From a virus: a DNA stretch of 64,000 nt. Below are positions 7,433 through 36,515 of the stretch, piece by piece; the stretch's first letter is position 1, and each line of letters begins with the position of its first letter. The notes under the pieces are model-generated. The model saw nothing but the letters and a program-made list of their open reading frames with translations. It ran no database searches and was not told the origin of the DNA. A program made the position numbers and the translations under genes. Location of the stretch: positions 31,878-95,877 of IMG/VR virus record IMGVR_UViG_3300042308_000216; one strand, written 5' to 3'.

Positions 7433-7434
7433 GC

Positions 7435-12345: not shown

Positions 12346-12356
12346 TAAAATAAGAT

Positions 12357-14192: not shown

Positions 14193-14195
14193 GCT

Positions 14196-17100: not shown

Positions 17101-20100
17101 GAGTTGTATCTGAGAATGTAGAAACTGATTTACAAACTTTAATTAATATTAGAGCTGCTGTTACAAATGAATTTCAAGATATTAAACTTAGTTCTAAAAG
17201 TAATGGTAAACTAAACCAGTTACCAATGTTCTATAGATTATCAGAACTTATTGATGAGAATGTAGAGTTTGCTATTGCAACATCATCTATTCAATTAAAC
17301 ACTAGTAAAGTAACACCTGTTGAAAATTTAGCTAATACTAAAGGCTACAAAGTAGGTCAGGTATATGCATTAACTGTTATGCCTGATGGTAGAAAGTTAG
17401 CTGTACCTGTAAAGACAACTAAGATTAAAGAAAACCCACAAGTACTTACAGAGTTAATGTCTGCTTTAGATATTTTCTTAAAAGGAGGTAATAGAGAAGA
17501 CTTACAAGCTGTTTTTGGTAAATACTTACATTCAGTATTTAGTAAAGATAAACTAACACCAGATGGTAATTCTTTTCAAGAAGACCCTAATGGTAATGAT
17601 AGATTCTATATTGACTTTACTTCAACAAATGTTAAAGGTATTATATTTGGAAAAGCAGGATTTTCTAAAAACTTTATTAGTGGTGATACACCTATAGATG
17701 CTTTAGAAGGATTAAAAAAAGAGTTAGCTTCTATTATTCAAGAGAGTTATATCAATCTTAATTTTCAAAGCTTAAAAGACCCTGATTTTGTAAAAACATA
17801 TGTAACAAGTAATGTTAGATTTTATCCATTACCTAATGGTAAGGTAACTGTGTTTGATAATCCAGTACTTGGATTTGACCCATCTACATTAATAAATGCT
17901 ACAGCACCTGCTGCTAAAGTAACACCACAACCTATTGTTACACCTACAACACAAAGTTCTGAATCTGTCTTTAATATAACTATTGAACAGATAAAAAACA
18001 ATATAGCAGAATTAAGAGCTAAAGAACAAGCAGAGTATGCTGCTATTGATCCTAATGATACAGCAGCAAGAAAAAAGATTTATGAAGACTATAATAAATT
18101 AATTACTACTTTAATAAATGAAGCAGAAGCTGATATAGAAAAAAGAAAAGAAGCAGAGTTAGAATTAGAATCTGAAAGAATTGTAGAAAGTACTGAAATT
18201 TGGAAAGATGAAGAAGGTCGTTTATTTAGAATTGATAAACTAAAAAACGGTAAACAAAGATTAGCCGCTACAGATGAAGAAGGTAAACTGCTTAGTGTAA
18301 TAGATATCTATGAAGGTTCTGTATCTCCTACTAAGTTTATAGCAGATGGAGAAAAAGTAAAAGACCAAGAAGTAAAAGAAAATAAGATAGTAGATAAAAT
18401 TAATGCTAAATATAAAGAAGAACTAGATGCTGTAAAACAAGTTAAACCTACTACTACACCTATTTCTGATATAGAAACTAAAAAAGCAGATATAGAAACT
18501 GCTTTTGATTATATAACTACTCGTAAATATAAAGGTGAAAATAATAGATTAAATGAAATAAATAAAATTGGAGAAGATCTTGCTAAACGCTTTGTAGCTA
18601 CTCTTAAAGAAAAAGGTTTAGTTAAAGAAGACTACAGAATGGCTCCTAGAACTGATGGGTCTGTAGAAAAAATGAAAGTAAATACAGATGATAAAGGTAA
18701 TAATTTAGGAAATGATTGGAGTACTGCTGGTAAATTTAAAGATGAGTTTAGAAAATTTGTTAATGTAGAATTAGCTTCTTTAAAAAGTAAAGCTACTACT
18801 ACACCTACAGCACAATCAACTACAGATACTAAAGCTGAAATAGAAAAAAGATTAAAAGAAGAAATTATATCTTTAGAAAAAGATTTAAAGGCTATTAAAT
18901 TTAAAGATGGAAATACACTAGGAAAAATGTTTCCTGATTGGTCAGTAGAAGCTGCTACTTTTATAAGAGAACATTTTAAAAAAGCTGTTACTGAAGAAGA
19001 TTATAATAAAGCAGTAAGATATGAAAACCTAGTAAACCATTTTGATGCTGTAGTTAAAAATGAATTAAATAAATTAACACTTCAACCTACAGCTCAACCT
19101 ACTGCTGCAGATATTAAAGCTGATATAGAAAATAGAATTGTTATTACTGGAACTGACCAAGGATTTGAAGTATATAATACATCAAATATTAAAAATGAGA
19201 AAGCAGGAACTGTAGCTGATGTTAGAAGAAAGTATTCTGATGATAAATATGAAATAGAATTTGGTAAAGGAGATGATAAAAAAAGTATTTTTTCTGATAT
19301 AAATTATGGTCAAAAAGAAGATTCCTATCATTATTTTATAACAGATAAAAAAACAAAGAAGAGATACTACGTAGTAGGAATTAGCAGTAGAGTTACTGGT
19401 ACTGATCCCCAAAGAGATGGAAGTCTATTTGCAACTATAGAGGACGATGGTAATATTACAGATTTTACAAGAACAGTATTAGAACTTGCTCTTATAAAAG
19501 AATTTGAAAATCAAACGAAAAAAAGAAAGAATATATTTAGACCTTTACCACAAAAATTTATTGACAAAGTAAAAGCTGCAGAACAAGCTGCTTTAGGGCA
19601 AGCTCAACCTACACCTGCTACAGAAACACCAACAACTCCACAAGAAAAAGGAGAGTTTTCTATTCAAGGTACATTTCGTGGATTAACTCATGTATTAGGT
19701 GATCCTGCTAATATGATTCCTGATCTTAGAGATACAGGATTTATTGATAAGCCAACTTTTTCTGAATCTGTTCAAAAAGGTAAAAAGTTTTTTACACTTT
19801 CTATTCCACAAGCAGATGATGTTTATAGACAAGGCTATTTATCAGTGTCTTTAGTATTTCCTGAAACAACAACTAAAACAATGGCTGATGTCAAAGCTGC
19901 TTTAGAAGCAAAAGTAGCTGAAGCTAAATCTGTTATTGCAACTGCAAGAGATAAAGGATCTAATGCAGAAGCTTTTTTAAAAAACAAGGTTAGTGCAGAA
20001 TACACAGAACAACCTTCTGTAACAGAACCAGTACCTGTAGTTGAACAACAACCTGTACCACAACCTACAGTTGAATTAAAATCTGCTGGTGGAGCAAAGT

Positions 20101-21461
20101 TTAACTTGAAACTACCTAAAGAAGATTCAGATTTAAGTATAACTACTACAGAAGAACTAGGTGTTGAACAAGTAGCACAAGAAGTATTACCTGCTTTAGA
20201 AGATAGATTAAGAGGATTTTTATCATCTATTAATGTAGATACATTAGTTGTAGATAATTTACAAGAAAGATTAAAAGAAAAAGGATTGAATACTGATGCT
20301 GTTGCAATATCAGATATATTACACAAAGCAATATTCCTAGATTCAGAAAGGTATAATACTATGGATTATGCTGAAGAGGTTGCTACTTTTGCAATTGAGT
20401 TTATGGGAGCTAGTAAACATGCTGAGGCATCTCCTTTAATTAGAAAAGCACTAGACAATATATCAAGTTGGGAAAAATACCAACAATACTATGATTTATA
20501 TAAGGATAATCCTATTTATAAAAACAACGAAAGAAAATTAAAAGTTGAAATACTTAGTAAGCTATTAGCTGAAAAAATAATAGAGAATAAAGATAAAACT
20601 AAAAAAACAAAACAAGATAAAAAGCTAACAACTTTAGAAACTATTATTAATGACATACTAGCTTTGTTTGATAAAATATGGAAATCAGATTACTATAGAG
20701 CTGTTGATAGATTTTTAAAACAAAAAGGTATTCAAACTAAAGGAGTTAATAAAATTAACATTAGACCTTTTGATGCTGTAATAAATGAGATTGTAGATGA
20801 TATACTATTTAATAATACATCTAAAATAATTAATAATGCTAATAGAGCTAGAAAAGGAGAAACTGCTGTTTCTTTAAAAGAAGTTTTAGAAAACAATCCT
20901 ACTATAAATGAGATATATAATAAACTAAACTCTTTAGGTTTTATGTTTACAGGTTCTCCTGCTCTTTCAAATGAAGGAACTATATACAGAGAATCTAATG
21001 ATACTTTACATGATTTAGATTGGCAAGTACCAAAAGAGTTAGAAGATAATTGGTTAGACATAATAAAAGAAACTTTTCCAGAAATAGGGTATAAGATTAA
21101 TGAAAAAACAAATCAAGCTCAGATTTTTAGTAAGGGTGAAAAAACTACTCACACTTTAATGATTAAAGGAATGCCTGTTGACTTTTTTATAAGTGTTAAT
21201 CCTCCATCCAATAAAAATACATTTGGAGATATGAGATGGCAGGATACCTTTGAAGCTAAGATGGATATAGGTAGAGACAAAGACATCAGAGACTTAATTG
21301 ACTTTAAAACTTTATTTAATGATTACTTTTCAAATCCTGGTTACTTATATTATTCTTTAGGTCAAGTTAAACCAGGAAAACAAATTGAAAAATATGTATC
21401 TTTGCAAGATAAGGTTAACACCCTTATAGAAGAAGGTAAAGCAACTAAATTTTGTAAGTAA
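14196..21461 (+). CDS. giant ejected cargo (polyvalent) protein with membrane-type N-terminus, repeat-delimited cassettes, degenerate zincin and C-terminal nucleotidyltransferase
   Basis: 2421 aa; Gly/Ala-rich hydrophobic helices in the N-terminus, long coiled coil, KA(D/E)IE repeats at 18126-19136, GSPAL..G...R....HDLD...DFF...K...RDKDIRD at about 20950-21295. Confidence 0.75.
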   Translation: MPGENLGTTTIAIPLQKIKPYKPTSTTQAVPETYAGPQSRYDDNYFIDQSKMNSEFFQSMRAENQGFGMELATAGANLIPNIALSIGETAGYLFDVEDWSNMIQGNKTDYGNAITKWASDNKNPFGQVYTKSTDGGFDMSDSAWWVSNGGGLVESLVAFGITGFGVGSVLGKSASMLSKTLGAYGKTKFAIEGAAKLGTSLSLAYSEGAMTGAQVFKDVYDDTYNFEYLKNVNAGMGDKEAKARAHYTATDVAGEGATKAVRTNTLINTFLNIPETNVLFRSMGASRYIDDALKLQKGEFARDAVERIKKFDVNKHLTRQGIEHWGKETGSEMLEEMVNVYAEESGKNVGRLATGQDIVSLGDMLANDDIWAAGFWGAIGGSMNGFVMGKMPKWVVQEDGTKKRTTVGAYNKEQVKDKYKEQLTDLQDRLTEFVDARDALDIAAKSGDERAYKEAADKVFSYNSFNSIVKGTEEQLLNDFQEIAAFTPEQAAQQGFASDYKERATEKIQSVRQNTAEWNKIQDRHSSQDLDQAGFPETIFQQHMNVQNNKKIIQDNTIELAKLESEIAQAHVLRGTDLTTTSFNDVKSSIDAVEHAFEMAAKDLSDIDSLSTLDSKTRQKKIAELSNKYGNIENAKIQIQKHLEELEEKREDLFNNLEIQKENFYSFIDPENTMSDDEKLDRYKNIIAQNSSDIYSLTEGKKVLETNRKILASQIEELRVLKSDKGLERFKALKKEKMAERDALDAQAAAKARAEAEAKAKAAKVEEIKVKKKEAPETVTPQEEEIIQANTPVESFEEGVYSGEGSNKEGLEEQYKEITKIADNSDEEGKVKDSSGQTISVGDKLMYGSNKLAYASTVEYIVEDDKIKHTSLKLNPETNPDLLTDKYVPGTKLKIKKLTPEEFKSHEFFAPDNIKFIDEVGREILVANKGQKVTFEMLSHPYMQPIGIYNEAGEYQAMLHAVTYINDNRVVSENVETDLQTLINIRAAVTNEFQDIKLSSKSNGKLNQLPMFYRLSELIDENVEFAIATSSIQLNTSKVTPVENLANTKGYKVGQVYALTVMPDGRKLAVPVKTTKIKENPQVLTELMSALDIFLKGGNREDLQAVFGKYLHSVFSKDKLTPDGNSFQEDPNGNDRFYIDFTSTNVKGIIFGKAGFSKNFISGDTPIDALEGLKKELASIIQESYINLNFQSLKDPDFVKTYVTSNVRFYPLPNGKVTVFDNPVLGFDPSTLINATAPAAKVTPQPIVTPTTQSSESVFNITIEQIKNNIAELRAKEQAEYAAIDPNDTAARKKIYEDYNKLITTLINEAEADIEKRKEAELELESERIVESTEIWKDEEGRLFRIDKLKNGKQRLAATDEEGKLLSVIDIYEGSVSPTKFIADGEKVKDQEVKENKIVDKINAKYKEELDAVKQVKPTTTPISDIETKKADIETAFDYITTRKYKGENNRLNEINKIGEDLAKRFVATLKEKGLVKEDYRMAPRTDGSVEKMKVNTDDKGNNLGNDWSTAGKFKDEFRKFVNVELASLKSKATTTPTAQSTTDTKAEIEKRLKEEIISLEKDLKAIKFKDGNTLGKMFPDWSVEAATFIREHFKKAVTEEDYNKAVRYENLVNHFDAVVKNELNKLTLQPTAQPTAADIKADIENRIVITGTDQGFEVYNTSNIKNEKAGTVADVRRKYSDDKYEIEFGKGDDKKSIFSDINYGQKEDSYHYFITDKKTKKRYYVVGISSRVTGTDPQRDGSLFATIEDDGNITDFTRTVLELALIKEFENQTKKRKNIFRPLPQKFIDKVKAAEQAALGQAQPTPATETPTTPQEKGEFSIQGTFRGLTHVLGDPANMIPDLRDTGFIDKPTFSESVQKGKKFFTLSIPQADDVYRQGYLSVSLVFPETTTKTMADVKAALEAKVAEAKSVIATARDKGSNAEAFLKNKVSAEYTEQPSVTEPVPVVEQQPVPQPTVELKSAGGAKFNLKLPKEDSDLSITTTEELGVEQVAQEVLPALEDRLRGFLSSINVDTLVVDNLQERLKEKGLNTDAVAISDILHKAIFLDSERYNTMDYAEEVATFAIEFMGASKHAEASPLIRKALDNISSWEKYQQYYDLYKDNPIYKNNERKLKVEILSKLLAEKIIENKDKTKKTKQDKKLTTLETIINDILALFDKIWKSDYYRAVDRFLKQKGIQTKGVNKINIRPFDAVINEIVDDILFNNTSKIINNANRARKGETAVSLKEVLENNPTINEIYNKLNSLGFMFTGSPALSNEGTIYRESNDTLHDLDWQVPKELEDNWLDIIKETFPEIGYKINEKTNQAQIFSKGEKTTHTLMIKGMPVDFFISVNPPSNKNTFGDMRWQDTFEAKMDIGRDKDIRDLIDFKTLFNDYFSNPGYLYYSLGQVKPGKQIEKYVSLQDKVNTLIEEGKATKFCK
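18126..19136 (+). repeat. four dispersed in-frame repeats (aagc[t/a]ga[t/a]atagaaa, encoding [K/E]A[D/E]IE) with Pro/Thr linkers
   Basis: Copies at about 18126, 18483, 18831 and 19116; copies 2-4 preceded by cct/act-rich linker codons. Confidence 0.75.
21397..21404 (+). promoter_or_regulatory. putative Bacteroidota -7 promoter element TATCTTTG(C) upstream of the vRNAP gene
   Basis: TAnnTTTG match about 57 nt before ATG 21461; the identical 9-mer precedes the next giant gene. Confidence 0.4.
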
Positions 21462-24400
21462 TGAGTAATTGTCAAACGACTTTCCAGGATAGAACTATCC
21501 CTTCTGGGGATTTTGAATTTCAAATAGCATCTAACCAAATTGATTTATCACCAACAGACAAGTCTGATTTAGATACAATGTCTTTACTGACATTAGACTT
21601 ATCAACAATACCTTTACTATCTCCTGATAAGATTAACTCTGCTCAACAAGAGGAGATGATTAATTGGTTAACAGGTGAAGTAATTAACTTCTCATTAAAT
21701 AATGCTGTTAAAGGTGTTGATGAAAAAGAGTTAATAAATAATGCTTTTAACGATGCATCAGAGCTTCTTAAAAGCGGTGCTTTACAAGCTGTAGAATTAG
21801 GTATACCAATATTAGAAGAAAGAATAAACAGTATTCTTGAGGTATATGATAAGCTAAAAGAGATTGTACAAATTAGAGTTAATAATTTTGGTATTGATTT
21901 TGAAGCTGATGCTGTTACACCAGAAGATGCTACTGAAAATTATGAAGAAGATAAAGCTTTAAAAGTAAATCCTTATACAAAAATTGGTCAGGAAATTAAA
22001 AGACAGCTTTTTACTATTTATGATTTAGATAGTTTACAAGAGGATGGTTCTTACACAGAAGATGATGTAAAAAGAACTTGGTTTGGATTCCCTGCTTACA
22101 AATCTATTAACCAAGTATTACCCACAATACTATCACACTCTAAAGATTTACCTGCAGAGTTTGATGTGATTAAAGCAAAGATGCTAGATAGCAAAGATGC
22201 TAATAAATGGTTTGTACCCTTACTTGATAAATTAAGTGAGGCTGATGGACAAGTTAGAAATCAGTTTTCTAGATGGGCTAGTAAAGCACAAATCAATTTA
22301 AAGTATTTATTGTTTGATACCAAGACTAATGAGTTTCAATTTAACAATAGTAACTCAGGTAGGCAAGTAGATATCATAACTAACAAATGGAAGAATAACC
22401 TTATACAAACAGAGCTATTTAAAATTAATCCAGACACTAATGAGTATGAGTTAGATAGAGAAAAAGCAGATGCTATAACTAAAAACTTTGAAGCATTCAG
22501 TGAAAAGTATAAAATGCTTAAAGAGAATTATCCAGAAGAGTTATTTACAGAACTGGCTGATATCTTAAAAAGTATTGGTGTTGATATTAAACCAAGAGAA
22601 ATTAAAAGAATGCAAAGGTTTCTTGATACACAAGGAACCAAATGGGGGAATAGTCCAAGAGCTAAATTTAGTCAGTTCTTTGTAGCTGATAAAGGTGCAG
22701 TGGATTTTATGATTCAAAGATTATCTAAAGCAGATAAAGAAGCTGAAGGTTCTTTTAATAAATACAATCCACTATCTAATAATACTGGTGTTAGAGCATT
22801 AACATTGTTATACTCTTATTACCAAGAAATTTCTACTAATGATTCTTACAAGAATAGTAACAATGATACTATTTATGCATATAGTCCTAAGAAATATGCA
22901 ACAGACCAATTTCAAAGAATAGCTGATACAGCTTATTTAGGTAGATTAATGGAAACTCAATTTGCTAGTAACTCTACTTGGGGTAAAGCATTGATGTCTG
23001 AGGATCCTGATACAAGAGCTAGATTTCTAGAAGTATTCACATTAGATTATTTTGATGGTGCTACAGGTAAAGGCTCTAAATTAAATACTCCATTTGACCA
23101 ACTATCTGCATCTGAAAGAGAAAAGTTTTTACTGACTTGTTTTCAAAACCAAAATAGAAAAGTACAAAGTAAATACAGATATGGTTCTACTTCTTATCTA
23201 ACTATGTCTGATAAGAAAACCTTAATTAGTGTTCAACATATATTAGAAGATGTTGATATTAATCCAGAAACAAATAAGCTAGGTAGTAAAAGTATTGACT
23301 TATTATATCAAGTATTTAAAGCAGAGCAGCAAAGGATTAGAGAATTTGAAGCATTAAGTGCAGAGAATAAAAAAGGTTTATCAAAAGAATATGTAAAAGG
23401 TGCAAAAGAGTATATCTTAAATCCTTGGGTTACAAAATATAAAGCTGAAGGAAAAGAACTTGACTCATCAGAAGATGTTAAAATAGCTATTGAAGAATAC
23501 TATAATGATATTATAAATACTAAAATAGCTACTTGGAAAGAGGTTGGTATTATATCTACAGATAATGAAGATAATATAACTACAACTTTTGATAAAGAGT
23601 ATTTTGAGAATGTTAAAAATAGTAAAGTAGGTAGTAAAGCAAATATTAATGCTGCTATTGCTTATGCTGCTATTGACTATGAAGTAAATACAATAATTGG
23701 TAACTTAAATCTATTTCAATTATTTGCTGGTGACCCAGCTAGTTATTGGAAAAACAATGTTGATGATACATTAGTAAATGTTGGTAAACGTCTAGCAGCA
23801 CAGATTGCTCCTGGAGATTCATTAGCTAATACTAGATATACAGACATTGCTGGTATTAATGGGCATAGCTATACACAAGTTATTGCTAAAGACCATAAAA
23901 TGATATCATCATCTATCAAGTATCTAACTAAGCTGCTTGATGGTAAAGAAGTTACTGATAAAGAGATTGAAGATTATAGAGCAGGTAATACTAAAGCAAT
24001 AGAAGAAAAATATCCTAATGCTGCAGCTTACTTTGATATAGAAGCTACTGATGCTCAGGAATATACTACAGCATTAGAGCATGCTTACAATCTATACCAT
24101 GAAGGTAAGTTATCTGATAAAGTATATAAAGACTTAGCAAATAAATTAATTAATGATAGAGAGTTAAGTGATAGTGATGTTAAAGTGCTAATGCAACCTA
24201 TGAAACCAGTTTACTTTAATGGTGATGTTAAGTCAGCAGGTACTGGTTCATTAAATTATTATGATATGTCTTACATTAAGACTTCATCATTTCCATTGTT
24301 AAAAGAATTTACAGTAGGTACTGAGCTTGACAAGTTAAGAAAACAACTAGAGAAATTACAAGACCCAACTGGTTCTAAAGACCCTAGCCAAATTAAACTT

Positions 24401-27400
24401 GTTAGAATGGTAATGAGTTCAGGTATTAAGATTGGTGCTGTGCAGAATCCTGTAACAGTATTCAATCCTGATGGAACAGTTAATCCTGATATTGACTTTA
24501 CAAGCTCTACAAAGTCTTTAACTAGAGATGGATATAGAATTCAGTTAGAGGTTCCTTTAAAAGATAAGAAAGAAGTTAATAGAGGTACACAAGAGATTAA
24601 ACTTTTGTTTACAGATTTACTTGACCATAAATTTGCTAATGGTAAAACAGGACAACAGTTAAAAACTGAATACCTTGATTTAAACAGACAACTATTTAAA
24701 ACTCAATTAGAGATATTTAAAAACCAAATAGATGCAGATGAAAAAGGTGAATTTAATATTCAACTATTAAGAGATAAACTAGTAGAAGAAGCACAATCAA
24801 GAAACTTTTCACTGAATGAGATTGAGTCTTTGAGACTAGTTGATTTAGACTCTGAAGGTAAGTTTGTAATTCCATTAGTTTTTAACTCAGCATCAGATAA
24901 GTTTGAAAGCTTAATGATTTCTTTAATAGATAACTCTGTTAGAAAACAAAAGCAAACTGGTTACAGCTCTCCATTAGGTTCATCTTCTGGATTTAAATTT
25001 CAGAATGACCTTAAAAGTATAGATAAGAGTAAAATTATTTGGGTTGAAGGTTTTGATCCATCAGGAGATTTAAAGCAACAAAGAATTGTAGATGGTAAAG
25101 TAAGAGGTTCACAAGTATTTGTACCTTGGAAATTCAGAGATAACAATGGTAAGCTTTTAAATGCAAAAGATTTTACTAAAGAGTTGCCTGATGGTAGAAT
25201 AGTAATTGATCATGATAAATTACCAAAAGATATATTAAAGTCATTTGGATTTAGGATTCCTACACAGGGATTAAACTCAATGGCTTATATTGAGATTGCA
25301 GGATTTTTACCAGAAGAATCTGGTGACTTGTTAATTGCACCTGCTGAATTTACAAAGCAGATGGGTTCTGACTTTGACATTGATAAATTATATAGTTACT
25401 TATATACTACAGAATTTAATTATAAAACTGGTAAACTAGAAAAGTTTGTATTTAATAATAAAGATGTATTTGAAATACTATCTAGTACTAACTCTAGTTT
25501 AGTTACTAAAGACAATAAAGATTACAGATTAAAAACATTAATCAAAGAGTTTGGATATATTAAAGTAGCCAAATCTCTTTTCCAATTTTATAACAGTAAA
25601 ATAGATACTCTTAAAAAAGAGTTAGATGATAAGTGGTCATTACATGAAGCTTTTGTAAGTAATGTACTAGACACTATTGATGTTAAAGAAGCATCATTGG
25701 ATACAAATAAAACATTAATCAATAAAGCTTTTAGAGAGAATGAAATCTATGTTGCTTTCTTGAGAGATGAGTTATCAGAGTTAAGGTCTGTAATATCTGC
25801 ATTAGAGAAAAATGAATTAGATGAAGGTGTTAATGAATACCTTGTAGATAAATTTGATATCTATGTAGATGAAGTAAGAACAGAAAGTATAAATGAATTA
25901 CTTAGAAAAGAGTTTGAATTAAATAATAGATTAGAAAAATCTGTTGTAATAAAAGAAAGTCTTAAGAAGTTTAATGCTTCTATTAGTGATACTGTAAAAG
26001 TTGCTTTAGATATTAAGAATGATATTTTTGAGACTAAAAGAGATTTAAGAAATATATTAAAGTACACTAGTACATTACAGAATGAAATTCTAGATATGCA
26101 CATCACAGTGCTATCTGACCCATCAGATTTAGTACAGTCTAAAGTAACATCAGCATTAGGATTTGGTAAGCTAGGTGAACTTAAAAAGGTATATGATAAA
26201 GAATCTAAATCAAAAGCAGAAAGTACTAGCCCTTTATCATCAGGATACCAATCTCAGAAATATTTATCTGCAAGAGGTGGTAAAGCAGGTACAGGATACT
26301 TTAGTGCATTAAATGTATTTGTATCTGTTATGCAGGGACTAGGATTAAAGTATAATGTATCTACTCCTGTAGATAATGGTAAATTTGCAATGATAGAGAA
26401 AAACCTAGTTATCCATAAAAAAGGTAATGGGTTGAGTAAGAATGTTGATAACATGAATAACCTTAAATCTGAGAATGCTGTAGCATACCAATCAGCAGCT
26501 GTGGATGATGAGAAAGAACAGATTATGGCTTCTCTTAATATCACATCAGAAACATTCTATGCTATTGGTGCATGGATATTAGATGGTCATTCACAAGAAG
26601 CTATTACAGGTATTTTAACTCAGCCTATTGTTGCTGAGTATATCAATGCAATCAATAATAAAACAGATATTTTTTCAGATTTTACTAAGAATGCAGATCT
26701 TATTGTGTTTAATGAGTTGTATGAAAAGTACTCTAAGATGACAGGTCTTAGTCAAGAAATATTAAATGAAACTGATTTTAATAATACTGTATTATCAGAA
26801 GATGTTTTATGGAATTCTTACAAAGCTACTACTAAAGATGCTAATTGGGCTATGACTCAATTAACTGCTCTACATAAATTTAGAGAAGCTGATGTTATGG
26901 GTAAAAGCATACAAAAAACCATCAGTGCATTTAGTGTGGATTCTAAAGGATTAGGTAAATCTTTTATAGAAGTTGGTTTAAAGTTAGATGATATTAAAAC
27001 TGAAAGAGAAAGTGGTAAAATTACTAACATAGAAAAACTACTTAATCAATCTGTAGGTGGATTAGCTGTGCAATATTCTTTAGAAACAGTTCACCAACTA
27101 TTTAGTAAGTTCTACCCATACTTAATTCCTGAAAGTTATAACAAAGTTACTTTTGATGAGTATTTACAAGTTACATTTAAAGATAATCTTTCAGCAGAGC
27201 AAAGAGAAAAAGAGTTTAGAGATTTCTATAACCACATGAAAGCTGGTGTGTATGCAAATATGCTTCAGCAACCTGGTGTAGATTTATATACTAGAAGAAA
27301 AGAGTTAATGTATGGTGAAAATTCATTAGGTAAAAGAGTACAAGAACTGCAAAAAACTACTAAGAACCCATTTTTAATTAAACTTACTCCTAATGTAGCT

Positions 27401-30400
27401 ACTATTGTAGGAGATCCTGATACAGTAAGTATGAGGTCTATTGGTGGTGAGTTATTTAATGAAGATGATTTATATGTTGGCTTTTTAGATTTATTTAATA
27501 AACCTGAAAACAGACAGTTAGCTAAAGACTTAGTTGATTACTTCTATATTAATGGTGGTAGTCAGAAAGCTAGAGAGTTTTCTAAATATATTCCAACTGG
27601 GTTTATGGTTGCTAGTGGTTATGCAGATAGTTTAAGAAGTGCTAACTTATTTAACCTATCAAATATTCTAGGTTCACCTCAAATGTTTTTACAGAACTAC
27701 ATCAGAAACAATCCTAGTAAAGCACCTCAACTTAATAGAGGAGATTATACTATGAGTCCTGATGGTAAAGTCACTGTTACTAGTGACCAATTTACATATG
27801 TACCTAAAAATGGTGTTGATGTTGGTGTTAGTACAGCAATACCTTATGTTTCAATACCAGAAGTAAAAGTAAATCCAGATGATAGTATTAAAGTAACTAT
27901 AAGACTTTACATGTATGATGACCAAGGTAGTTATGTAGAAATTCCTAGATTGGGATTTACAACATCAAACTATTCAGGTACAGAGTATGGTAGTAGATAT
28001 TCTGCTATAGATTCTAATGCTGTAAAACAAAGAGTTCAAAATCCTAATACAGTGCAAGAACCTGTTAGGCAAGAAGCTAGTTCAGATCCTGTTATTCCAA
28101 ATAGTATTAAAGTAGCTGCTAATGACTTTGAAGCACTAAACATTAATAAGGTTAATAACAAAGAAGATGTTAAAGTAACACTATCTATTATTAATAACAG
28201 TACATCAAAAGCATTATTAGACTTACTTGATAAAATAGGTAGCTTAACTTTAGAAGCTACTCCAGGTAATTCTTCATATAAAGCAGGTAGAATTACAATA
28301 GATAGTAGAATTAAAGATCCATCTGTACTACAAACTAAAGTATTGCATGAAGTTACACATGCTGTAACATCTGAAATAATTAATAAAATACTATTAAACC
28401 CTAATAACCCTAACTTTGAAGGATTATCTGAATCTCAAAAGTTAGCTTACATGAGGTTAAATAAAACATTTACTACATTAAGACAATCTGTAATTGATGG
28501 TAGAGTACCTGGATTAAACAAAGAAGGATTAGAATTATTTGAAGCTAAAATAGATGCCCTTAAAAAAGGTCAAAAAGGAATTGACTTTACACCAGATGAT
28601 GTTGAGTATAATCCATATTTAAATCTTAAAGAATTTTTAGCAGAAGCATTTTCTAATACTACTTTTCAAAAGCAATTAGATGCTATGAAATTTACTGAAG
28701 ACAGATCAATGCTTCAGAAGTTGTTAGAAGATATTGCAAACTTCTTAAATAAATTTGTAGCTGACTACAATAAAGATAATGTACTTGCTTCTGTACTATA
28801 TGATGGGTTTACACTAGCTGGTGGTAATGAAGTAAATATTTATTTTAAATCTGGTGAAAATAGAATACTATCTAATTTAAATTTAAATTCTTTTACAGGT
28901 AAAGATGGTAAAAGATATGCTTCTGTAGAACATGCATACCAATCTTGGAAATCAGGATCATTTGATGAATCAACATATACATCTCCTAATTGGGTATTTA
29001 ATGGTGGAGATAATTATAAAGTATCTGGTAATAAAGGTACTAAAACAGAAAACAATTGGAATCTAGATTTAATGAAAGGTCTTATTAGACAATCATTAGA
29101 TCAAAACCCAAATGCTAAACAAGCATTACTTAATACAGGAGATAAAATACTTACTCATAACCAAGATAATACTATTTGGAAAAATGCTTTTCCTCAGATA
29201 TTAATGGAATTAAGAAAAGAGTATTATGATGCAGGATTATCTGGTGTTAACAATCCAAGTGATTATGTTAATCACTCTGGTGGTGCTGTAGGTTCTGATG
29301 AATCTTGGGATATTATAGGTAGACAATTTGGTGTAACACAGCATAAGCATTACAGAGAACCAGGTGCATTAAAGCTAGACTCAGCTGAACTTGATAGTAG
29401 AGGTATTAAACCTGTAAATGTATCTGAAGCTTTATACAATGAAGGTATTCAAAAATCTACTAGAGCAGCTCAACAAATGTATGGGTTAAAAGGTCAGATA
29501 AAAATGAATTACATTATTCGTAATTGGGCACAAGTTAAAAATGCTGACTCTATATATGCAATAGGTGTAATTCTTAAACCTGGTAATAGACTTAATACAA
29601 AAGATGATAGAATAGCTTTAGTACCACAAGTAAAAGGAGGTACAGGATATGCAGTACAGATGGCTATTAATGAAGGTAAGCCTGTATATGTATATGATGG
29701 CACAAAGAATGGGTGGTTTAAATATGATTACAATATAAAAGATTTTGTACCTACAAGTATACCAACACTTACTAAAAACTTTGCTGGTATAGGCTCAAGA
29801 AAATCTCAAGATTGGAATAAAGATTTACAAGCTATTAGAGATGTTTATGCTAATACTTTTAAAGTACAGCAAGATACTTCTACAAATACTGGAGGTAATC
29901 CAAAAGGAGAGAAAATTGCTGATGGTATGTATGTAAACCAACAAGGACTATCTCCACAAGAAGAACTTGAATTATTTGAACTTGTTAGACCAATTTTAGA
30001 GCAACAAGCTGTAAAAAGTAATAAAGGTAAATCAGCTCCTAAAATGGCTGGATTAAATTTAAATTGGGATTATGTAAGTAATAGAAGAGGGCAACAGACA
30101 AGAATAAATGTTGGAGAAACATTAAAACCTAATGATACTTATGGTTGGTTTACACAATCTGCTAATGGTCAAGAGTTATATCCAATTACTGGTAGAATGA
30201 TAGAGTTAATGAGTAAAGCTACTGGTATAGATGTTAGTAATTATGATGGTTCTATTATAAATATATATGATTCTAATAGTTTTATTGGTAACCATCCTGA
30301 TATTGATGAAAGTAAGACAGCAGAAAAATATCCTGTTGTTGTTGTTAATATAGGAGGTCCAGGAAATATTGTATTAGGTAATAAAAAAGTTGATTTAAAT

Positions 30401-32407
30401 TCAGGAGCAGGTTATGTATTTGGATTTGAAGGTAAAAATAGAACTATACCTCATTCTACTTATGCAGCACCTATTAAAGGTACATTACCATCTATAACAA
30501 CAAGTATGGATGGTGAGACATTAGCAGCTGGTTCTTATAGAGTTTCAATTACTATGAGAAGAGTTATGCCTTTAGAGCAAGGTATGCCTAGTAAACCAAA
30601 TACAGTTAATACCATATCTAAAACTCAACCTGTTGAAACTAGTACTGAAGAAATTCAACAAAACTTAGCTGAACCTACACCTCAACCTCAGAAGAGTACA
30701 TTTACATATAAAAATAAAACTATAGAAACTGAGTTTAAACTAACAAATGGTCAAGTAAATGCAATAGAAAGACTTACTGATTTTGCATTAGGTAACACTA
30801 AAACAATTACATTGCAAGGAGCTGCTGGTACAGGTAAAACATCTGTTATAGGTTACTTACAAAAGTTCCTAGGTGACAACTATAACTTTATTTATATGGC
30901 ACCTACACATGCAGCAACTGCTGAGTTAGCAACTGCTACAGTTAAGTCAGGTAATAGAGATTTACCTATGACTGTACAATCTGCATTTAATAAAAGACAG
31001 AATCAAGATACTGGTGAGTGGGAATATGGTACTACTAAAAAGTTAAATAATAAATTAGAGTATACAGATAATATTATTGTAATAGATGAAGTATCTATGT
31101 TAGCTGATAAAGACTACAACATAATACTAGATGCTATTAAAAAGAAACAGATTCAAGTTATCTTTATGGGTGACATACTTCAGATACCTGAAGTTGATAC
31201 TAATAATCCAGAAAGAAAAAGTGTATCAAAAGCATTTTCTGCTAATGAGCAAGTATTACTTACTGAAGTAAAAAGAACTGATGATAATGATATACTTACA
31301 ATCTTAACAGAACTTAGAAACAACCCAACAAGTTTAATACCAGTAATACCAAATAGTAATAGATTACAGTATTTAGACCAAGGAGAGTTTGATAATCAAA
31401 TAGTAGAAACTATTAGAATAGAACCTGAAGAAACTGTACTACTTAGCTATACAAATAATGGTGTTAAAGACAGTAATAGAAAATTAAGAAGAGCATTAGG
31501 TAGAGTTGGTAATCTACAAGAAAATGATATTATAGTTGGTTTTTCAGGTTACAAGTCTAAGCAAATTGAAAAAGGAAACATTGCTAATAGTGTTAGATAC
31601 ACTGTAGAAAATGTTGAAAAAGATGGTAGTAATTATATTATAACAGCAAAATCTCAAAAGCTAAAGGCTTTAGAAGATTTAGGTGTAAAGAATGTAAATG
31701 AATATGCAGTAGGTACATACAAACAATTATCAGCAAATGATTCTTTAGTATTTGAAGACCTTACTAATGAAGACCTTGAAAAAAACAATAGAGATGTTTC
31801 AGAAATATTAAAACTAGTTTATGATACTAAGCAAGCTGCTGTAGCTAGAAGAATTAGATGGAATGTATATGATGCTGCTTTAGCTAAAGCATCTATGTAT
31901 TTTGAAAATGTTAATTTAGGTAGTGACTATGTTTATAATCCAAATACAAATAGAATGGAGTTATACAACTATATAGTTCATGGTGACATACTTAAAAACT
32001 TTGCAGAGTTAAAAGTAGAAAAAGGTATTGACTATGGTCATGCTATTACTATACATAAATCTCAAGGTAGTACAATCAAGAATGTATTTTTTGATGCTAG
32101 TACTTTACCTCAAGGAACATCTTCTAAATTAATACAGAATGGTAATCAAATAAGTACTGAGAAGCATTCTTTAATCTATGTAGCTCTATCAAGAGCATCT
32201 AATATGTTAGTAATTAATAAATCAAATATTAGTAATTTCTATACATTGAACAAAGATTCTAGAAACACAACAGATAATTCAATATCTTTGCCAAAAGATT
32301 TAGGTATGGACAATCTTGAATTTATGAAAGATTTAGATAAACAAGAAAGAGCTGCATATCGTAAATTATTTAATGATGGCACTTTTAAAGTAAAATGTAA
32401 TGGGTAA
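21461..32407 (+). CDS. virion-packaged RNA polymerase (phi14:2 gp66-like) fused to zincin, NADAR, SLOG, AlkB and SF1B helicase domains
   Basis: Catalytic QMGSDFDIDKLY (DFDID 25370-25384), GFRIPTQG, TDAQEY; HEVTH at 28346; NADAR SVEHAYQ; SLOG HSGGAVGSD and GGTGYAV; AlkB HPD..H..RVSITMR; helicase GAAGTGKT, DEVSM, HKSQGST, YVALSRA. Confidence 0.92.
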   Translation: MSNCQTTFQDRTIPSGDFEFQIASNQIDLSPTDKSDLDTMSLLTLDLSTIPLLSPDKINSAQQEEMINWLTGEVINFSLNNAVKGVDEKELINNAFNDASELLKSGALQAVELGIPILEERINSILEVYDKLKEIVQIRVNNFGIDFEADAVTPEDATENYEEDKALKVNPYTKIGQEIKRQLFTIYDLDSLQEDGSYTEDDVKRTWFGFPAYKSINQVLPTILSHSKDLPAEFDVIKAKMLDSKDANKWFVPLLDKLSEADGQVRNQFSRWASKAQINLKYLLFDTKTNEFQFNNSNSGRQVDIITNKWKNNLIQTELFKINPDTNEYELDREKADAITKNFEAFSEKYKMLKENYPEELFTELADILKSIGVDIKPREIKRMQRFLDTQGTKWGNSPRAKFSQFFVADKGAVDFMIQRLSKADKEAEGSFNKYNPLSNNTGVRALTLLYSYYQEISTNDSYKNSNNDTIYAYSPKKYATDQFQRIADTAYLGRLMETQFASNSTWGKALMSEDPDTRARFLEVFTLDYFDGATGKGSKLNTPFDQLSASEREKFLLTCFQNQNRKVQSKYRYGSTSYLTMSDKKTLISVQHILEDVDINPETNKLGSKSIDLLYQVFKAEQQRIREFEALSAENKKGLSKEYVKGAKEYILNPWVTKYKAEGKELDSSEDVKIAIEEYYNDIINTKIATWKEVGIISTDNEDNITTTFDKEYFENVKNSKVGSKANINAAIAYAAIDYEVNTIIGNLNLFQLFAGDPASYWKNNVDDTLVNVGKRLAAQIAPGDSLANTRYTDIAGINGHSYTQVIAKDHKMISSSIKYLTKLLDGKEVTDKEIEDYRAGNTKAIEEKYPNAAAYFDIEATDAQEYTTALEHAYNLYHEGKLSDKVYKDLANKLINDRELSDSDVKVLMQPMKPVYFNGDVKSAGTGSLNYYDMSYIKTSSFPLLKEFTVGTELDKLRKQLEKLQDPTGSKDPSQIKLVRMVMSSGIKIGAVQNPVTVFNPDGTVNPDIDFTSSTKSLTRDGYRIQLEVPLKDKKEVNRGTQEIKLLFTDLLDHKFANGKTGQQLKTEYLDLNRQLFKTQLEIFKNQIDADEKGEFNIQLLRDKLVEEAQSRNFSLNEIESLRLVDLDSEGKFVIPLVFNSASDKFESLMISLIDNSVRKQKQTGYSSPLGSSSGFKFQNDLKSIDKSKIIWVEGFDPSGDLKQQRIVDGKVRGSQVFVPWKFRDNNGKLLNAKDFTKELPDGRIVIDHDKLPKDILKSFGFRIPTQGLNSMAYIEIAGFLPEESGDLLIAPAEFTKQMGSDFDIDKLYSYLYTTEFNYKTGKLEKFVFNNKDVFEILSSTNSSLVTKDNKDYRLKTLIKEFGYIKVAKSLFQFYNSKIDTLKKELDDKWSLHEAFVSNVLDTIDVKEASLDTNKTLINKAFRENEIYVAFLRDELSELRSVISALEKNELDEGVNEYLVDKFDIYVDEVRTESINELLRKEFELNNRLEKSVVIKESLKKFNASISDTVKVALDIKNDIFETKRDLRNILKYTSTLQNEILDMHITVLSDPSDLVQSKVTSALGFGKLGELKKVYDKESKSKAESTSPLSSGYQSQKYLSARGGKAGTGYFSALNVFVSVMQGLGLKYNVSTPVDNGKFAMIEKNLVIHKKGNGLSKNVDNMNNLKSENAVAYQSAAVDDEKEQIMASLNITSETFYAIGAWILDGHSQEAITGILTQPIVAEYINAINNKTDIFSDFTKNADLIVFNELYEKYSKMTGLSQEILNETDFNNTVLSEDVLWNSYKATTKDANWAMTQLTALHKFREADVMGKSIQKTISAFSVDSKGLGKSFIEVGLKLDDIKTERESGKITNIEKLLNQSVGGLAVQYSLETVHQLFSKFYPYLIPESYNKVTFDEYLQVTFKDNLSAEQREKEFRDFYNHMKAGVYANMLQQPGVDLYTRRKELMYGENSLGKRVQELQKTTKNPFLIKLTPNVATIVGDPDTVSMRSIGGELFNEDDLYVGFLDLFNKPENRQLAKDLVDYFYINGGSQKAREFSKYIPTGFMVASGYADSLRSANLFNLSNILGSPQMFLQNYIRNNPSKAPQLNRGDYTMSPDGKVTVTSDQFTYVPKNGVDVGVSTAIPYVSIPEVKVNPDDSIKVTIRLYMYDDQGSYVEIPRLGFTTSNYSGTEYGSRYSAIDSNAVKQRVQNPNTVQEPVRQEASSDPVIPNSIKVAANDFEALNINKVNNKEDVKVTLSIINNSTSKALLDLLDKIGSLTLEATPGNSSYKAGRITIDSRIKDPSVLQTKVLHEVTHAVTSEIINKILLNPNNPNFEGLSESQKLAYMRLNKTFTTLRQSVIDGRVPGLNKEGLELFEAKIDALKKGQKGIDFTPDDVEYNPYLNLKEFLAEAFSNTTFQKQLDAMKFTEDRSMLQKLLEDIANFLNKFVADYNKDNVLASVLYDGFTLAGGNEVNIYFKSGENRILSNLNLNSFTGKDGKRYASVEHAYQSWKSGSFDESTYTSPNWVFNGGDNYKVSGNKGTKTENNWNLDLMKGLIRQSLDQNPNAKQALLNTGDKILTHNQDNTIWKNAFPQILMELRKEYYDAGLSGVNNPSDYVNHSGGAVGSDESWDIIGRQFGVTQHKHYREPGALKLDSAELDSRGIKPVNVSEALYNEGIQKSTRAAQQMYGLKGQIKMNYIIRNWAQVKNADSIYAIGVILKPGNRLNTKDDRIALVPQVKGGTGYAVQMAINEGKPVYVYDGTKNGWFKYDYNIKDFVPTSIPTLTKNFAGIGSRKSQDWNKDLQAIRDVYANTFKVQQDTSTNTGGNPKGEKIADGMYVNQQGLSPQEELELFELVRPILEQQAVKSNKGKSAPKMAGLNLNWDYVSNRRGQQTRINVGETLKPNDTYGWFTQSANGQELYPITGRMIELMSKATGIDVSNYDGSIINIYDSNSFIGNHPDIDESKTAEKYPVVVVNIGGPGNIVLGNKKVDLNSGAGYVFGFEGKNRTIPHSTYAAPIKGTLPSITTSMDGETLAAGSYRVSITMRRVMPLEQGMPSKPNTVNTISKTQPVETSTEEIQQNLAEPTPQPQKSTFTYKNKTIETEFKLTNGQVNAIERLTDFALGNTKTITLQGAAGTGKTSVIGYLQKFLGDNYNFIYMAPTHAATAELATATVKSGNRDLPMTVQSAFNKRQNQDTGEWEYGTTKKLNNKLEYTDNIIVIDEVSMLADKDYNIILDAIKKKQIQVIFMGDILQIPEVDTNNPERKSVSKAFSANEQVLLTEVKRTDDNDILTILTELRNNPTSLIPVIPNSNRLQYLDQGEFDNQIVETIRIEPEETVLLSYTNNGVKDSNRKLRRALGRVGNLQENDIIVGFSGYKSKQIEKGNIANSVRYTVENVEKDGSNYIITAKSQKLKALEDLGVKNVNEYAVGTYKQLSANDSLVFEDLTNEDLEKNNRDVSEILKLVYDTKQAAVARRIRWNVYDAALAKASMYFENVNLGSDYVYNPNTNRMELYNYIVHGDILKNFAELKVEKGIDYGHAITIHKSQGSTIKNVFFDASTLPQGTSSKLIQNGNQISTEKHSLIYVALSRASNMLVINKSNISNFYTLNKDSRNTTDNSISLPKDLGMDNLEFMKDLDKQERAAYRKLFNDGTFKVKCNG
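32283..32290 (+). promoter_or_regulatory. putative Bacteroidota -7 promoter element TATCTTTG(C)
   Basis: TAnnTTTG match about 110 nt before ATG 32400. Confidence 0.35.
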
Positions 32408-35400
32408 AACTTGTAGGGTAATTTCAAATGATGATATTTTTAATTCTTTAGAAGAATTAATGCATCAACATGTAGCAACTGTATTGAGGACTAGATTTGA
32501 GATGGCTAAAGAGGCTGGTACTGCTGATAGAATGTTAACTTTTCTTATTGATAGATACAAAAAGCACAAGAATAGACAGCCAGAAGATAGAATATTTGAT
32601 AACTACAAAGATGCTAGAGACTATTTTTTAAATACAAGACAAAACTATGACCTTGTAAACCCACCTAGAAAGATTGTAGGTAGTGGTAGCTATGCAGTGT
32701 ATTCATACTCAGGTATGCAATATGCTAATATTATCAGTCAGTTATCAGAAAAACTTGATGAAGAACTAAGCTACTATGAAGAAAAAACTATAGAAGAAAT
32801 TAGAACTAAGCAAAAAGAAGCTAATGAAATCTTTAATGATGAAGGTGAATTATATGCTCCTGATGGTGACATTGACTATTCTGTTAGTATAGAATCACAA
32901 TATGACTTTGTACTTAAAAGAAAAAAGGAAGAGATGACTAACCTTGACAGGTTAATTGCTTTAGAAAAGTCTAAAAGAAATACTGAGAATGTTGAGAAAT
33001 TAACTAAGGCTAAAGAAAGATTAGAGGAAGATATTAAAAAACTAATTGATACTCCTAACTTTTCTGATATAATGAATATAGCATCTGATGATTTAGAAGA
33101 GATAAATACTATTTTAGATAAAGATATGCTATCACCACAAGATCTAGTTATTGTAAAAAACAAACTTGAGTTTTGGTTGAGTGATAAATTTAGAGATGCT
33201 TTTTTTACTAGTGCAGATAAGATTAATGAAGTACCTAGTTATAAAGCTTTTTTAGTTAAAAAAGGAGAGTTTGATAGAAAGAGAGTTCAATGGGAAGACT
33301 TAGCTTCTGCTTACATGAATAGTGTTATTAAAGATGTTACTAATAATAACTATACAGTAGAAGAGCTTAAGATAATGAAAAAACAATTACTAGAGATTAA
33401 TATTGGTCAAGGTCAGATGAGAGATTTATCTACTGACTCTAATATCTTTATTCAAGTAATTGATACTAAAATGAAAGAAGCTAGTGAATTTGCTAGACAA
33501 GAGGTACTTACTTTTCAAAAGAAATTAACTGAAGAAACAGAAGCTTTAATAAAAAGAGCAGGTACTAATAATCCTAAGAAATTATATGAACTGTTTTTAC
33601 AATTAGATTCTAAAGGCAACTGGTCTGGTGGTGTTGTAAATAGATTTTCTCAAAAGTTTTTTGATGCTAGACAAGCAATACAAGTTACAGATTGGTCAGA
33701 TACTGAGAAAGTAAAAGCTAAATACAAATGGTTAAAAGAAAACACAATTACTTTTGACCCTCGTAAACTATTTTATGAAGATTACCTAGAAATGGAAGAA
33801 GGTAATCGTCCAGCATTATTTGATGAAGAGTCTAGAGAAGCTCATATACAAGAACTTAAAAGAGAACTTGGTGAAAGAGGCTTTGCTAATTACTTTGAAA
33901 AACAAAAGAAAGTATTTGAAGATTTCAAAGAAAGATATAATGAGCTTAAAAATACTACAGAAGGTACAGAAGAAGAAGTTAAAGCTGCTTTAGATGCATG
34001 GAAAAAAGAATGGTCTCCATTCTACTACCTTGATAAAACAACAGGTGCTAATGTAAGTGCTGGTAAATTTTTAGGTTATAATTATATTGTAAGTGTACCT
34101 AGAAGATTTAAAAGAGATGGTGAGCCTACTGGTTGGTATGATAAAAACTTTGATAGAATTGAAGCAGACCCTGATTATTTAAAATACTATGAATTCTTAA
34201 CAGATTCTCTACAGAAGTTTAAAGCATACTACCCATCAGATAATGAGTTACAAACAAATTACTTACCTGAGCTTAGAGAAACCCAAGTATTAAAACAATT
34301 CTTTACTAATCCATTAGCATTAAAATCTAATCTATATGATTTCTTTATAGACCAGACAGCAGAAAATGAGATATTCCAAGATCAAACAGATTCTATGGGT
34401 AATCTTATTAGAATATTACCTGCACATATGATGTCTAATAATATGTCAAAACTAAGTGCAATAGAAAAAAGAATACTTGTTGATGAAGCAGTTAAGAAAA
34501 TACCTGATACTACTAGTGTAGAGTTTAAAGCTTTATTGCAACAAATGCAGTATGATGCAATACAAAAGAAACTTAAAGAAAAATCTTTTGATTTATTTAA
34601 AGTATTATCAGCACATGCTGTAACAGCAGAAACTTACAAACATAAAACTAGAACAGAAGATTTTCTTAGAATAGCAAAAGACTTTGTTTATAATGCAGAA
34701 AGAATAAATGTAACTGCTAATGGACAAACAAGTTCTTCTATCATGGGTTTCAATACACAAAAAGATGGTTTAAGAAATCTAATTAATGCTTTTGATTATG
34801 CTGTAGATTCTTGGTATGGTTTAAATAAAAATAAAAAACCGGGTAAACTAGTAGCTAAAGATTTAGAATCTAAAAAGAAAATAGAAGACTATGAAGCCAG
34901 TTTAAAACAGTTAAAAGAGTCAGAGCAAGATGACGAAACTGTAAAAAAAATCAAGGCTATTGAAGAAAATATTAGATCATTACAAAAAATATTTATCACT
35001 TCAAATGCTTCAGACTCTGTGCTTAAATATATCCATATAAAGTCTATGGGTTGGAATCCATTCTCTGCAGTAACTAACTTAGGTTTTGGTTTTATATCTA
35101 ACTATACACATGCAGCAGGTGAGCAAGACTTTACTTCTGAAGAACTTAATAAAGCATATGCTTATTTACTAAACAATGTTTTCAGAGCAACAAGAGCTGT
35201 TAATATGAAAACTGCAGTTAAGATAAGCCAGCTTATGATGGAGTATGGTGTAGTTGGAGATATTAGAGAAGGTACTGGTAGTCATGCTATTAAAGGTATT
35301 AAAGAAAAATTTAAAATTCTATTACCTTATGAAATGACTAGTAGAGCAGAGTTTGTTAACCAAGGTTCTACATTTATAGCAATGATGCTTAATACAAAAA

Positions 35401-36263: not shown

Positions 36264-36292
36264 AAAAGGGGCATTTAAGCCCCTTCTATTTT
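36262..36292. terminator. bidirectional intrinsic terminator between the convergent late and replication arms
   Basis: aaggggc-atttaa-gcccctt hairpin (36266-36285), A-run on the left, T-rich on the right. Confidence 0.85.
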
Positions 36293-36515
36293 AGTCTATT
36301 GAAACTCCATAATCATTTAGTAACTCATGGAGCATATCTCTAGCATCCTGGTAAGCAGCAGCTGATTTATCATCTAAAGTAGGATCATACTTAAGTTTAC
36401 TTCTTAGCTTTTGGTTTAAATCCCAAAGAACAGCTTTATAATCTGATGCATGTACTGCATCATGAAAATCTGTTTGTTCTTCAGGTAAAGTAAATGTTAT
36501 AGTAGCTTTTGCCAT
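36291..36515 (-). CDS. hypothetical phage protein
   Basis: MAKATITFTLPEEQ...LWDLNQKLRSKLKY; start moved to 36515 to avoid overlap with the upstream gene. Confidence 0.7.
   Translation of the reverse strand: MAKATITFTLPEEQTDFHDAVHASDYKAVLWDLNQKLRSKLKYDPTLDDKSAAAYQDARDMLHELLNDYGVSID

Follow-up and report, generated by a model that had tools for sequence, protein, structure and literature searches.

Among phages of the human gut, crassviruses are the most abundant. Proteins of the giant cargo block that contains their virion RNA polymerase (vRNAP) have been detected by mass spectrometry in virions of Cellulophaga phage phi14:2 (record notes) and of crAss001 (PMC10172136), and the packing, ordering, and tail passage of such giant cargo are called open both by the crAss001 atlas (PMC10172136) and by a 2026 study of phage N4 (PMC13434306). 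The vRNAP of N4 is a single 'beads-on-a-string' chain of an N-terminal domain, a core, and a C-terminal domain, and the same study raises the relation of the three crAss proteins to these three parts (PMC13434306). In cyanopodophage A4 (Anabaena phage A-4L), whose pre-ejectosome has been solved by cryogenic electron microscopy (PNAS 2025), gp27 inserts its C-terminal helix into gp26, and a Cys1715-Cys5 disulfide joins the two proteins (PMC12002296). Here, we analyze 64,000 nucleotides (hereafter, the window) of the IMG/VR virus record IMGVR_UViG_3300042308_000216 (positions 31,878 to 95,877 of that record), in which a vRNAP (protein B) is encoded between two other giant cargo proteins (A upstream and C downstream), and in which single cysteines (Cys) stand at the four ends where the three proteins face each other.

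Cysteine map of the cargo block

Proteins A, B, and C make up the cargo block associated with the RNA polymerase in crAss-like phages, and they are probably packed into the virion and injected. B matches phi14:2 gp66 (PDB 6VR4) in a phmmer search (E=1.5e-25) and carries a catalytic loop of the DxDxD type (GSDFDIDK at amino acids [aa] 1302-1309) that is invariant in the B family; its nearest cultured relatives are the FpV4-group Flavobacterium phages (32 per cent identity in the catalytic region) and phi14:2. Neither A nor C has a Pfam match or a sequence match in PDB. The block occupies the position of a crAss vRNAP block, downstream of the ring genes, the muzzle gene, and two smaller cargo genes, with the giants A and C flanking the polymerase. 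The stop codon of A and the start codon of B overlap by 1 nucleotide (TAATG), and the end of B and the start of C by 8 nucleotides (ATGGGTAA), an arrangement compatible with coupled, equimolar synthesis of the three proteins.

A scripted count found only five Cys in the 7356 residues of A, B, and C, and four of the five are located no more than five residues from the four mutually facing ends. Specifically (with positions counted from the N-terminus or, where negative, from the C-terminus), the sole Cys of A is residue 2420 of 2421 (-2), the sole Cys of C is residue 5 (codon 32412-32414; N-terminus MGKTC), and B has Cys 4 in its MSNC start (21470-21472), Cys 560 (23138-23140), and Cys 3646 (-3; 32396-32398). 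The original prediction, which had described lone Cys at the facing ends of A, B, and C and a single internal Cys in the vRNAP, is thus borne out exactly; the internal Cys 560 is a stray residue that is not kept in the related locus L002. If Cys were placed uniformly, the probability of finding at least four of five within the 20 positions that are no more than five residues from a facing end would be ~3e-10. Four tipped ends out of four are unlikely even at the Cys rate of ordinary genes: in the ordinary open reading frames (ORFs) of the survey loci described below (2.06 per cent Cys), a Cys is found at positions 2-6 in 12 per cent and in the last four residues in 10 per cent.

The five cargo proteins of the window (A, B, C, and the 1636-aa and 611-aa proteins upstream) together have 6 Cys in 9603 aa (0.06 per cent), and the window's other ORFs of at least 100 aa have 154 Cys in 9396 aa (1.6 per cent). 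The purge of Cys therefore extends to all five cargo proteins, whereas the terminal tips are confined to A, B, and C.

The Cys-bearing ends are conserved among relatives. The last 30 residues of A are 87-93 per cent identical in orthologs P0131 and P0134, both of which lack the ~400-aa module located just upstream of the tail in A. Other phages have copies of this module, with 62-83 per cent identity, close to the N-terminus of their C-type proteins (one such being the protein downstream of the vRNAP in L001, 9797-19078), and these module-bearing proteins have their sole Cys at the N-terminal end (positions 3-5 in P0124, P0125, and P0127-P0129; position 19 in P0126). No Pfam family matches the module (aa 1990-2395 of A); because it recurs in proteins downstream of the vRNAP in other phages, modules are shuffled among members of the cargo chain.

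Similarly, the tail of B is separated from the polymerase body by a ~1150-aa insertion, which has a weak match to NADAR, a match to AlkB-like 2-oxoglutarate-Fe(II) oxygenases, and a clear superfamily 1 (SF1) helicase (Pfam). Close relatives of 2650 aa (P0116-P0118) are devoid of the insertion and yet have the same 44-residue tail. Cys 4 and Cys 3646 are invariant in the B family, and across the last 300 residues of 27 aligned vRNAPs, no column other than Cys 3646 (C298 of the alignment) is invariant. The N-terminal Cys of C is found in 18 of 18 homologs with 21-90 per cent identity, at position 5 or, in two distant ones, at position 3; 16 of these homologs have no further Cys, and the other two have one extra. 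When 52 C proteins are aligned (columns 18 per cent identical on average), Cys5 is the sole invariant column. These comparisons show that the Cys belongs to the protein end and not to a domain, because the A and B tails persist without the ~400-aa or ~1150-aa blocks and the module is Cys-free everywhere. The enzymes of the B insertion are themselves candidate injected repair or counter-defence enzymes.

In AlphaFold2 models, the end of B consists of the helicase domain (to ~3585), a low-confidence linker (3594-3618), a helix (3627-3638), and a 10-residue coil with the Cys, and residues 1-9 of C (model of residues 1-1089; predicted local distance difference test score of 82) form a coil arm ahead of the first helix. 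The junction Cys of the B C-terminus and the C N-terminus are thus predicted to lie on flexible coil ends. The complementary terminal beta-strands that had been envisaged for the facing ends do not appear in either model, neither of which has a strand there. A helix-G-x5-C pattern had also been described at the C-termini of A and B; G-x5-C is indeed present in both tails, and the helix of B is backed by the model. As a general motif, G-x5-C is rejected, given that only 16 per cent of 145 distinct tails in the survey have G at -6.

Cysteine pairs are kept at splits and lost at fusions

With a profile of the vRNAP catalytic region, we retrieved 80 loci from IMG/VR (73 clusters at 70 per cent identity); single-protein scans of IMG/VR reached only two close loci. 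The loci are metagenomic, and each frame was taken to start at its first ATG. Neither junction region of the window matched anything in a phage collection, at the DNA level or with tblastn. Where the vRNAP is followed by a giant protein, Cys is found on both facing ends (in the last 10 and the first 10 residues, respectively) at 48 of 48 junctions. Both facing ends also have Cys at 15 of 15 junctions between an upstream giant and the vRNAP; the vRNAP Cys is at positions 3-5, and the sole Cys of the upstream giant is located in the last 10 residues in 12 of the 15 and in the last 35 in the other three.

Fused proteins are devoid of these residues. An N-terminal Cys is found in 0 of 36 A+B fusions (3800-5400 aa), and the small protein upstream of the fusion is Cys-free in the 36 loci, so that no C-terminal Cys faces the fusion in any of them. 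The vRNAP has no C-terminal Cys in 18 of 22 cases in which no giant is adjacent downstream, and 15 of these 18 were shown to hold the C module at their C-terminal end, most of them aligning to the very end of separate C proteins. The association of the C-terminal Cys with a downstream giant is strong (Fisher p=3e-13). Full A+B+C fusions (n=8; 4700 to >6600 aa) have zero Cys. The fused protein of L014 is colinear with L006 across the split junction, with the Cys-bearing end peptides deleted, and C of the window can be aligned to the C module within the L047 fusion protein. The other four of the 22 vRNAPs (L048, L080, L085, and L025) do have a C-terminal Cys; in L048, the partner is cut off at the locus end.

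The ends that face no other member of the chain are bare: 0 of 13 complete A proteins have a Cys among their first 10 residues, and 1 of 42 complete C proteins has one among its last 10. The single C-terminal Cys in a C protein is that of L075, where the C module is split in two and the next piece begins with Cys4; this locus (3119-21824) encodes an A+B fusion, followed by a 1167-aa protein (Cys4 and -2) and by another with Cys4 that is at least 1177 aa long. In L039 (2774-21836), extra pieces of 1118 aa and 308 aa are tipped at both ends. Each new break in these two loci thus brings a new Cys pair. Taken together, the loci show an order-wide rule without real exceptions: where two neighbouring modules of the A, B, and C series are split, Cys is found on both sides, and where they are fused, on neither. 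The original prediction had made its case depend on the conservation of the terminal Cys across Crassvirales, and such conservation is what the survey found.

The positions of the terminal Cys are narrowly constrained, with 139 of 145 distinct tails having the C-terminal Cys at -1 to -4 and 129 of 130 distinct N-termini having the N-terminal Cys at 3-6. The overhang lengths of the two facing ends are not correlated with each other (Spearman 0.05, p=0.70). Across 104 homologs, there are 273 Cys in 387,227 aa. After the N-terminal Cys, Pro is the commonest residue at +1 (16 per cent) and Asn at +2 (27 per cent), and C-P-N is frequent, as in the C-type proteins of L001, L048, L050, L053, L056, L057, L061, L062, L070, L074, and L080. 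From its recurrence in these sequences, C-P-N may be a docking or capping motif.

Cultured phages have the same pattern. In phi14:2, the sole Cys of gp078 is its last residue, gp077 has Cys at 3 and -2, and the sole Cys of gp076 is at 3. The corresponding positions are -3 (gp47), 5 and -9 (gp50), and 5 (gp49) in crAss001, and -3 (gp61), 5 and -1 (gp63), and 4 (gp62) in DAC15. In p-crAssphage LMMB, A has Cys at -2 and faces a B+C fusion that carries Cys3 but lacks a C-terminal Cys, and in Flavobacterium phage FpV4, a 4287-aa protein (an A+B fusion by size alone) has Cys at -2 and the next protein has Cys3. Two genes upstream of the FpV4 vRNAP, a 598-aa protein (8537-10333 of L003) has a single Cys at position 5, and none of the proteins visible upstream has a C-terminal Cys that could pair with it. 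Gene A of crAss001 and of DAC15 is encoded on the strand opposite to B and C and its Cys is retained; therefore, the Cys cannot result from a junctional DNA signal.

Nature and role of the junctions

We consider it probable that A, B, and C are tied end to end by inter-protein disulfides, with the Cys pair taking over the role that a peptide bond has in the fused proteins. The partners would be the two ends of the same junction, because any other pairing leaves unpaired Cys in A+B and B+C fusions. By analogy, a disulfide is the likeliest chemistry of the junction, since it has a solved precedent in the A4 bond between gp27 Cys1715 and gp26 Cys5. In the tail and portal vertex of crAss001 virions, subunits are connected by disulfides (PMC10172136), and the chemistry is therefore available in these particles. 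Of the chaining originally proposed, the linkage of the three proteins in gene order is supported by the conserved pairs, their loss at fusions, and the bare outer ends; its metal variant, its stoichiometric packaging, its threading as one chain, and its release by reduction are more tentative, as set out below.

In the proposed mechanism, the conserved 30-44-residue tails, carried on flexible linkers, would dock first, and the bond would close after the particle exits the reducing cytoplasm, tying the C-terminal end of A to the N-terminal end of B and the C-terminal end of B to the N-terminal end of C. The split proteins would then act like a single fused polyprotein, a chain of ~7400 residues with uniform N-to-C polarity. 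A Cys situated a few residues from each terminus would give a near-linear joint, which could pass the narrow tail channel with the proteins partly unfolded, and the purge of the remaining Cys would avoid wrong cross-links. Reduction in the host cytoplasm would finally free the proteins. That the split cargo is indeed ejected as one disulfide-stitched thread in fixed order, and that reduction, by cutting this thread, lets redox time the release and activation of the vRNAP and its fused enzymes, is a tentative proposal that we hold to be possible but rather doubtful.

Several points weigh against a disulfide tether. Reducing conditions in the host cytoplasm and the lack of oxygen in the gut put thiol oxidation and its timing in doubt. 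In the survey, the downstream partner in L080 sits beyond a small inserted ORF, the tail Cys of L085 has no giant partner in the available stretch, and L025 has no downstream ORF there; moreover, the upstream Cys is 9-32 residues from the end in L050, L057, L065, and L079, and the last Cys of the L039 vRNAP is at -64. The crAss cargo has no sequence homology to A4 gp27 and gp26. The crAss001 maps do not resolve the cargo (PMC10172136).

The serious alternative, although we rate it as unlikely, is that the pairs are an assembly device only, holding a 1:1:1 complex together for procapsid loading, after which the proteins exit separately. The A4 disulfide stabilizes an ordered pre-ejectosome on the portal and no thread (PMC12002296), the translationally coupled genes also suggest stoichiometry, and cleavage of fused polyproteins has been proposed by Drobysheva et al., all of which would suit such a device. 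However, the placement of Cys 1-6 residues from the end in ~96-99 per cent of cases is needed for a near-linear joint and not for a mere clamp, and the natural Cys-free A+B+C fusions show, unless they are cleaved, that a continuous chain is workable. Less probable still is that the facing Cys join neighbours by other thiol chemistry, such as a shared metal ion, a Cys-Lys bridge, or another covalent adduct. This would fit the covariation with splits and fusions equally well, and the enrichment of Lys at -3 to +1 around the C-terminal Cys (28-41 per cent) would be in line with a Cys-Lys bridge, but a junction with two thiols and no conserved His or extra Cys nearby would make a poor metal site. 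Furthermore, the sole solved analogue, phage A4, has a plain disulfide (PMC12002296), and crAss001 virions use disulfides elsewhere (PMC10172136).

Very improbable, in our estimate, is that each terminal Cys bonds a third partner on its own, be it the portal, the capsid wall, a DNA end, or a second copy of the same protein. Structural proteins of crAss001 do hold Cys and disulfides (PMC10172136), and homodimers or links to structural proteins are conceivable; nevertheless, such bonds leave unexplained the joint presence or absence of both junction Cys, the bare outer ends (0 of 13 and 1 of 42), and the new pair at each new break in L075 and L039. Hardly any credence is left for chance, or for a nucleotide-level junction signal (translation restart or promoter) that is read as Cys codons, and the comparative data refute both. 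TGT codons do lie on either side of the overlapping stop and start codons at both window junctions; however, both Cys codons are used at the tips (TGT 124, TGC 23), the spacing is variable, other junctions of the same operon are without Cys, and the Cys is kept in crAss001 and DAC15 though gene A is not beside B. For chance, the uniform-placement probability given above applies to the window alone. A lipoprotein or prenylation-type signal was also considered and rejected, as the Cys at 3-6 has no hydrophobic leader and the C-terminal Cys at -1 to -4 is found among lysines.

Layout of the locus and comparison with known ejection systems

Positions 92 to 36263 of the plus strand form a late structural arm of the crAss-like type (Table 1), in which five large or giant ORFs follow the muzzle gene with hardly any gaps between them. 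PHROGs has no family for the 1636-aa and 611-aa upstream cargo proteins. The hairpin behind C resembles a terminator of the structural and cargo operon, and gene orientation reverses beyond it.

Table 1. Features of the late structural arm and cargo block, in window coordinates.
Feature	Position	Strand	Basis or remark
Tail ring protein 2	92-844	+	Pfam CrAss_Ring_2, 3e-37
Tail ring protein 1	1661-2629	+	Pfam CrAss_Ring_1, 2e-51
Muzzle protein	2633-7432	+	Pfam crAss_MUZ, 1.5e-118
Cargo protein, 1636 aa	7435-12345	+	1 Cys; crAss001 gp45/gp46 counterpart by gene order
Cargo protein, 611 aa	12357-14192	+	0 Cys; crAss001 gp45/gp46 counterpart by gene order
Cargo protein A, 2421 aa	14196-21461	+	Positional counterpart of crAss001 gp47 and phi14:2 gp078
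Mobile ~400-aa module in A (~aa 1990-2395)	20163-21380	+	Cys-free
A tail, last 30 residues	21369-21458	+	Ends ...KFCK; Cys2420 at 21453-21455
B, vRNAP, 3648 aa	21461-32407	+	PDB 6VR4 match
Accessory-enzyme insertion in B (~aa 2455-3600, ~1150 aa)	28823-32260	+	Pfam
B tail, last 44 residues	32273-32404	+	Ends ...KCNG; kept also by relatives that have no helicase insert
Cargo protein C, 1287 aa	32400-36263	+	Positional counterpart of crAss001 gp49 and phi14:2 gp076
G+C-rich hairpin and T run, terminator-like	36264-36295		Directly 3' of the C stop

The closest described systems are the cargo blocks of phi14:2 (gp67-gp66-gp65; GenBank gp078-gp077-gp076) and crAss001 (gp47-gp50-gp49), in which the vRNAP is homologous and the gene order behind the ring, muzzle, and two smaller cargo genes as well as the Cys map are the same as in the window. 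Compared to both, the window vRNAP has the extra ~1150-aa enzyme block before its tail, and A has the ~400-aa mobile module. The terminal Cys are unmentioned in the publications on crAss001 (PMC10172136) and phi14:2 (bioRxiv 10.1101/2020.03.07.982082), and full-text literature searches found no paper on Cys or disulfides in crAss cargo proteins.

In the ejection operon of Schitoviridae (gp50-gp52 in N4 and gp71-gp73 in DEV), Cys are almost totally absent (0.00075 per cent in gp71 homologs), and passage through the periplasm has been proposed as the reason for their removal from the ejected giants of N4-like phages (PMC11445570). This suppression resembles that in the crAss cargo (0.06-0.07 per cent here), but Schitoviridae proteins have no conserved Cys, termini included (PMC11445570), whereas the terminal Cys are the most conserved positions of the crAss proteins. 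The rule of one pair per break has no Schitoviridae counterpart. The N4 vRNAP chain resembles the fused A+B+C forms of crAss-like phages, although the N4 polymerase is T7-like and the crAss enzyme is of the two-barrel type. The two polymerases have been described as fundamentally distinct in global structure (PMC13434306).

The -3/5 pattern of A4 resembles the junctions themselves: in the A-4L genome, the sole Cys of gp27 (1717 aa) is at -3 and that of gp26 (1114 aa) is at 5, as in the window, where the Cys of consecutive giant cargo proteins are at -2/4 and -3/5. The A4 proteins form a single pair, with no chain and no RNA polymerase, in an ordered pentameric ring on the portal, whereas the crAss proteins would make up a chain that includes the vRNAP. 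A phmmer comparison of A4 gp27 and gp26 to all crAss giants gave no match at E<=0.01, and searches with the 1089-residue model of C, made with Foldseek (PDB) and VIA-align for the whole model and not for single domains, returned generic helical matches only, none of them to A4. Because there is neither sequence similarity nor a fold match for C, we treat the A4 case as an analogy and not as homology.

The pair-per-break rule offers a concrete and cheap test on phages that are already in culture. If the ends are joined as proposed, this would explain why these genes have fused and split freely in evolution and why all other Cys have been purged, and it would allow accessory enzymes to be inserted into the chain without upsetting delivery; a single structural case from a cyanophage would be extended to a general mode of protein delivery. 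With respect to known systems, the purge of Cys and one terminal disulfide between ejection proteins are already described, and what is new is an order-wide rule of one Cys pair per break, with the vRNAP as the central member of the proposed chain.

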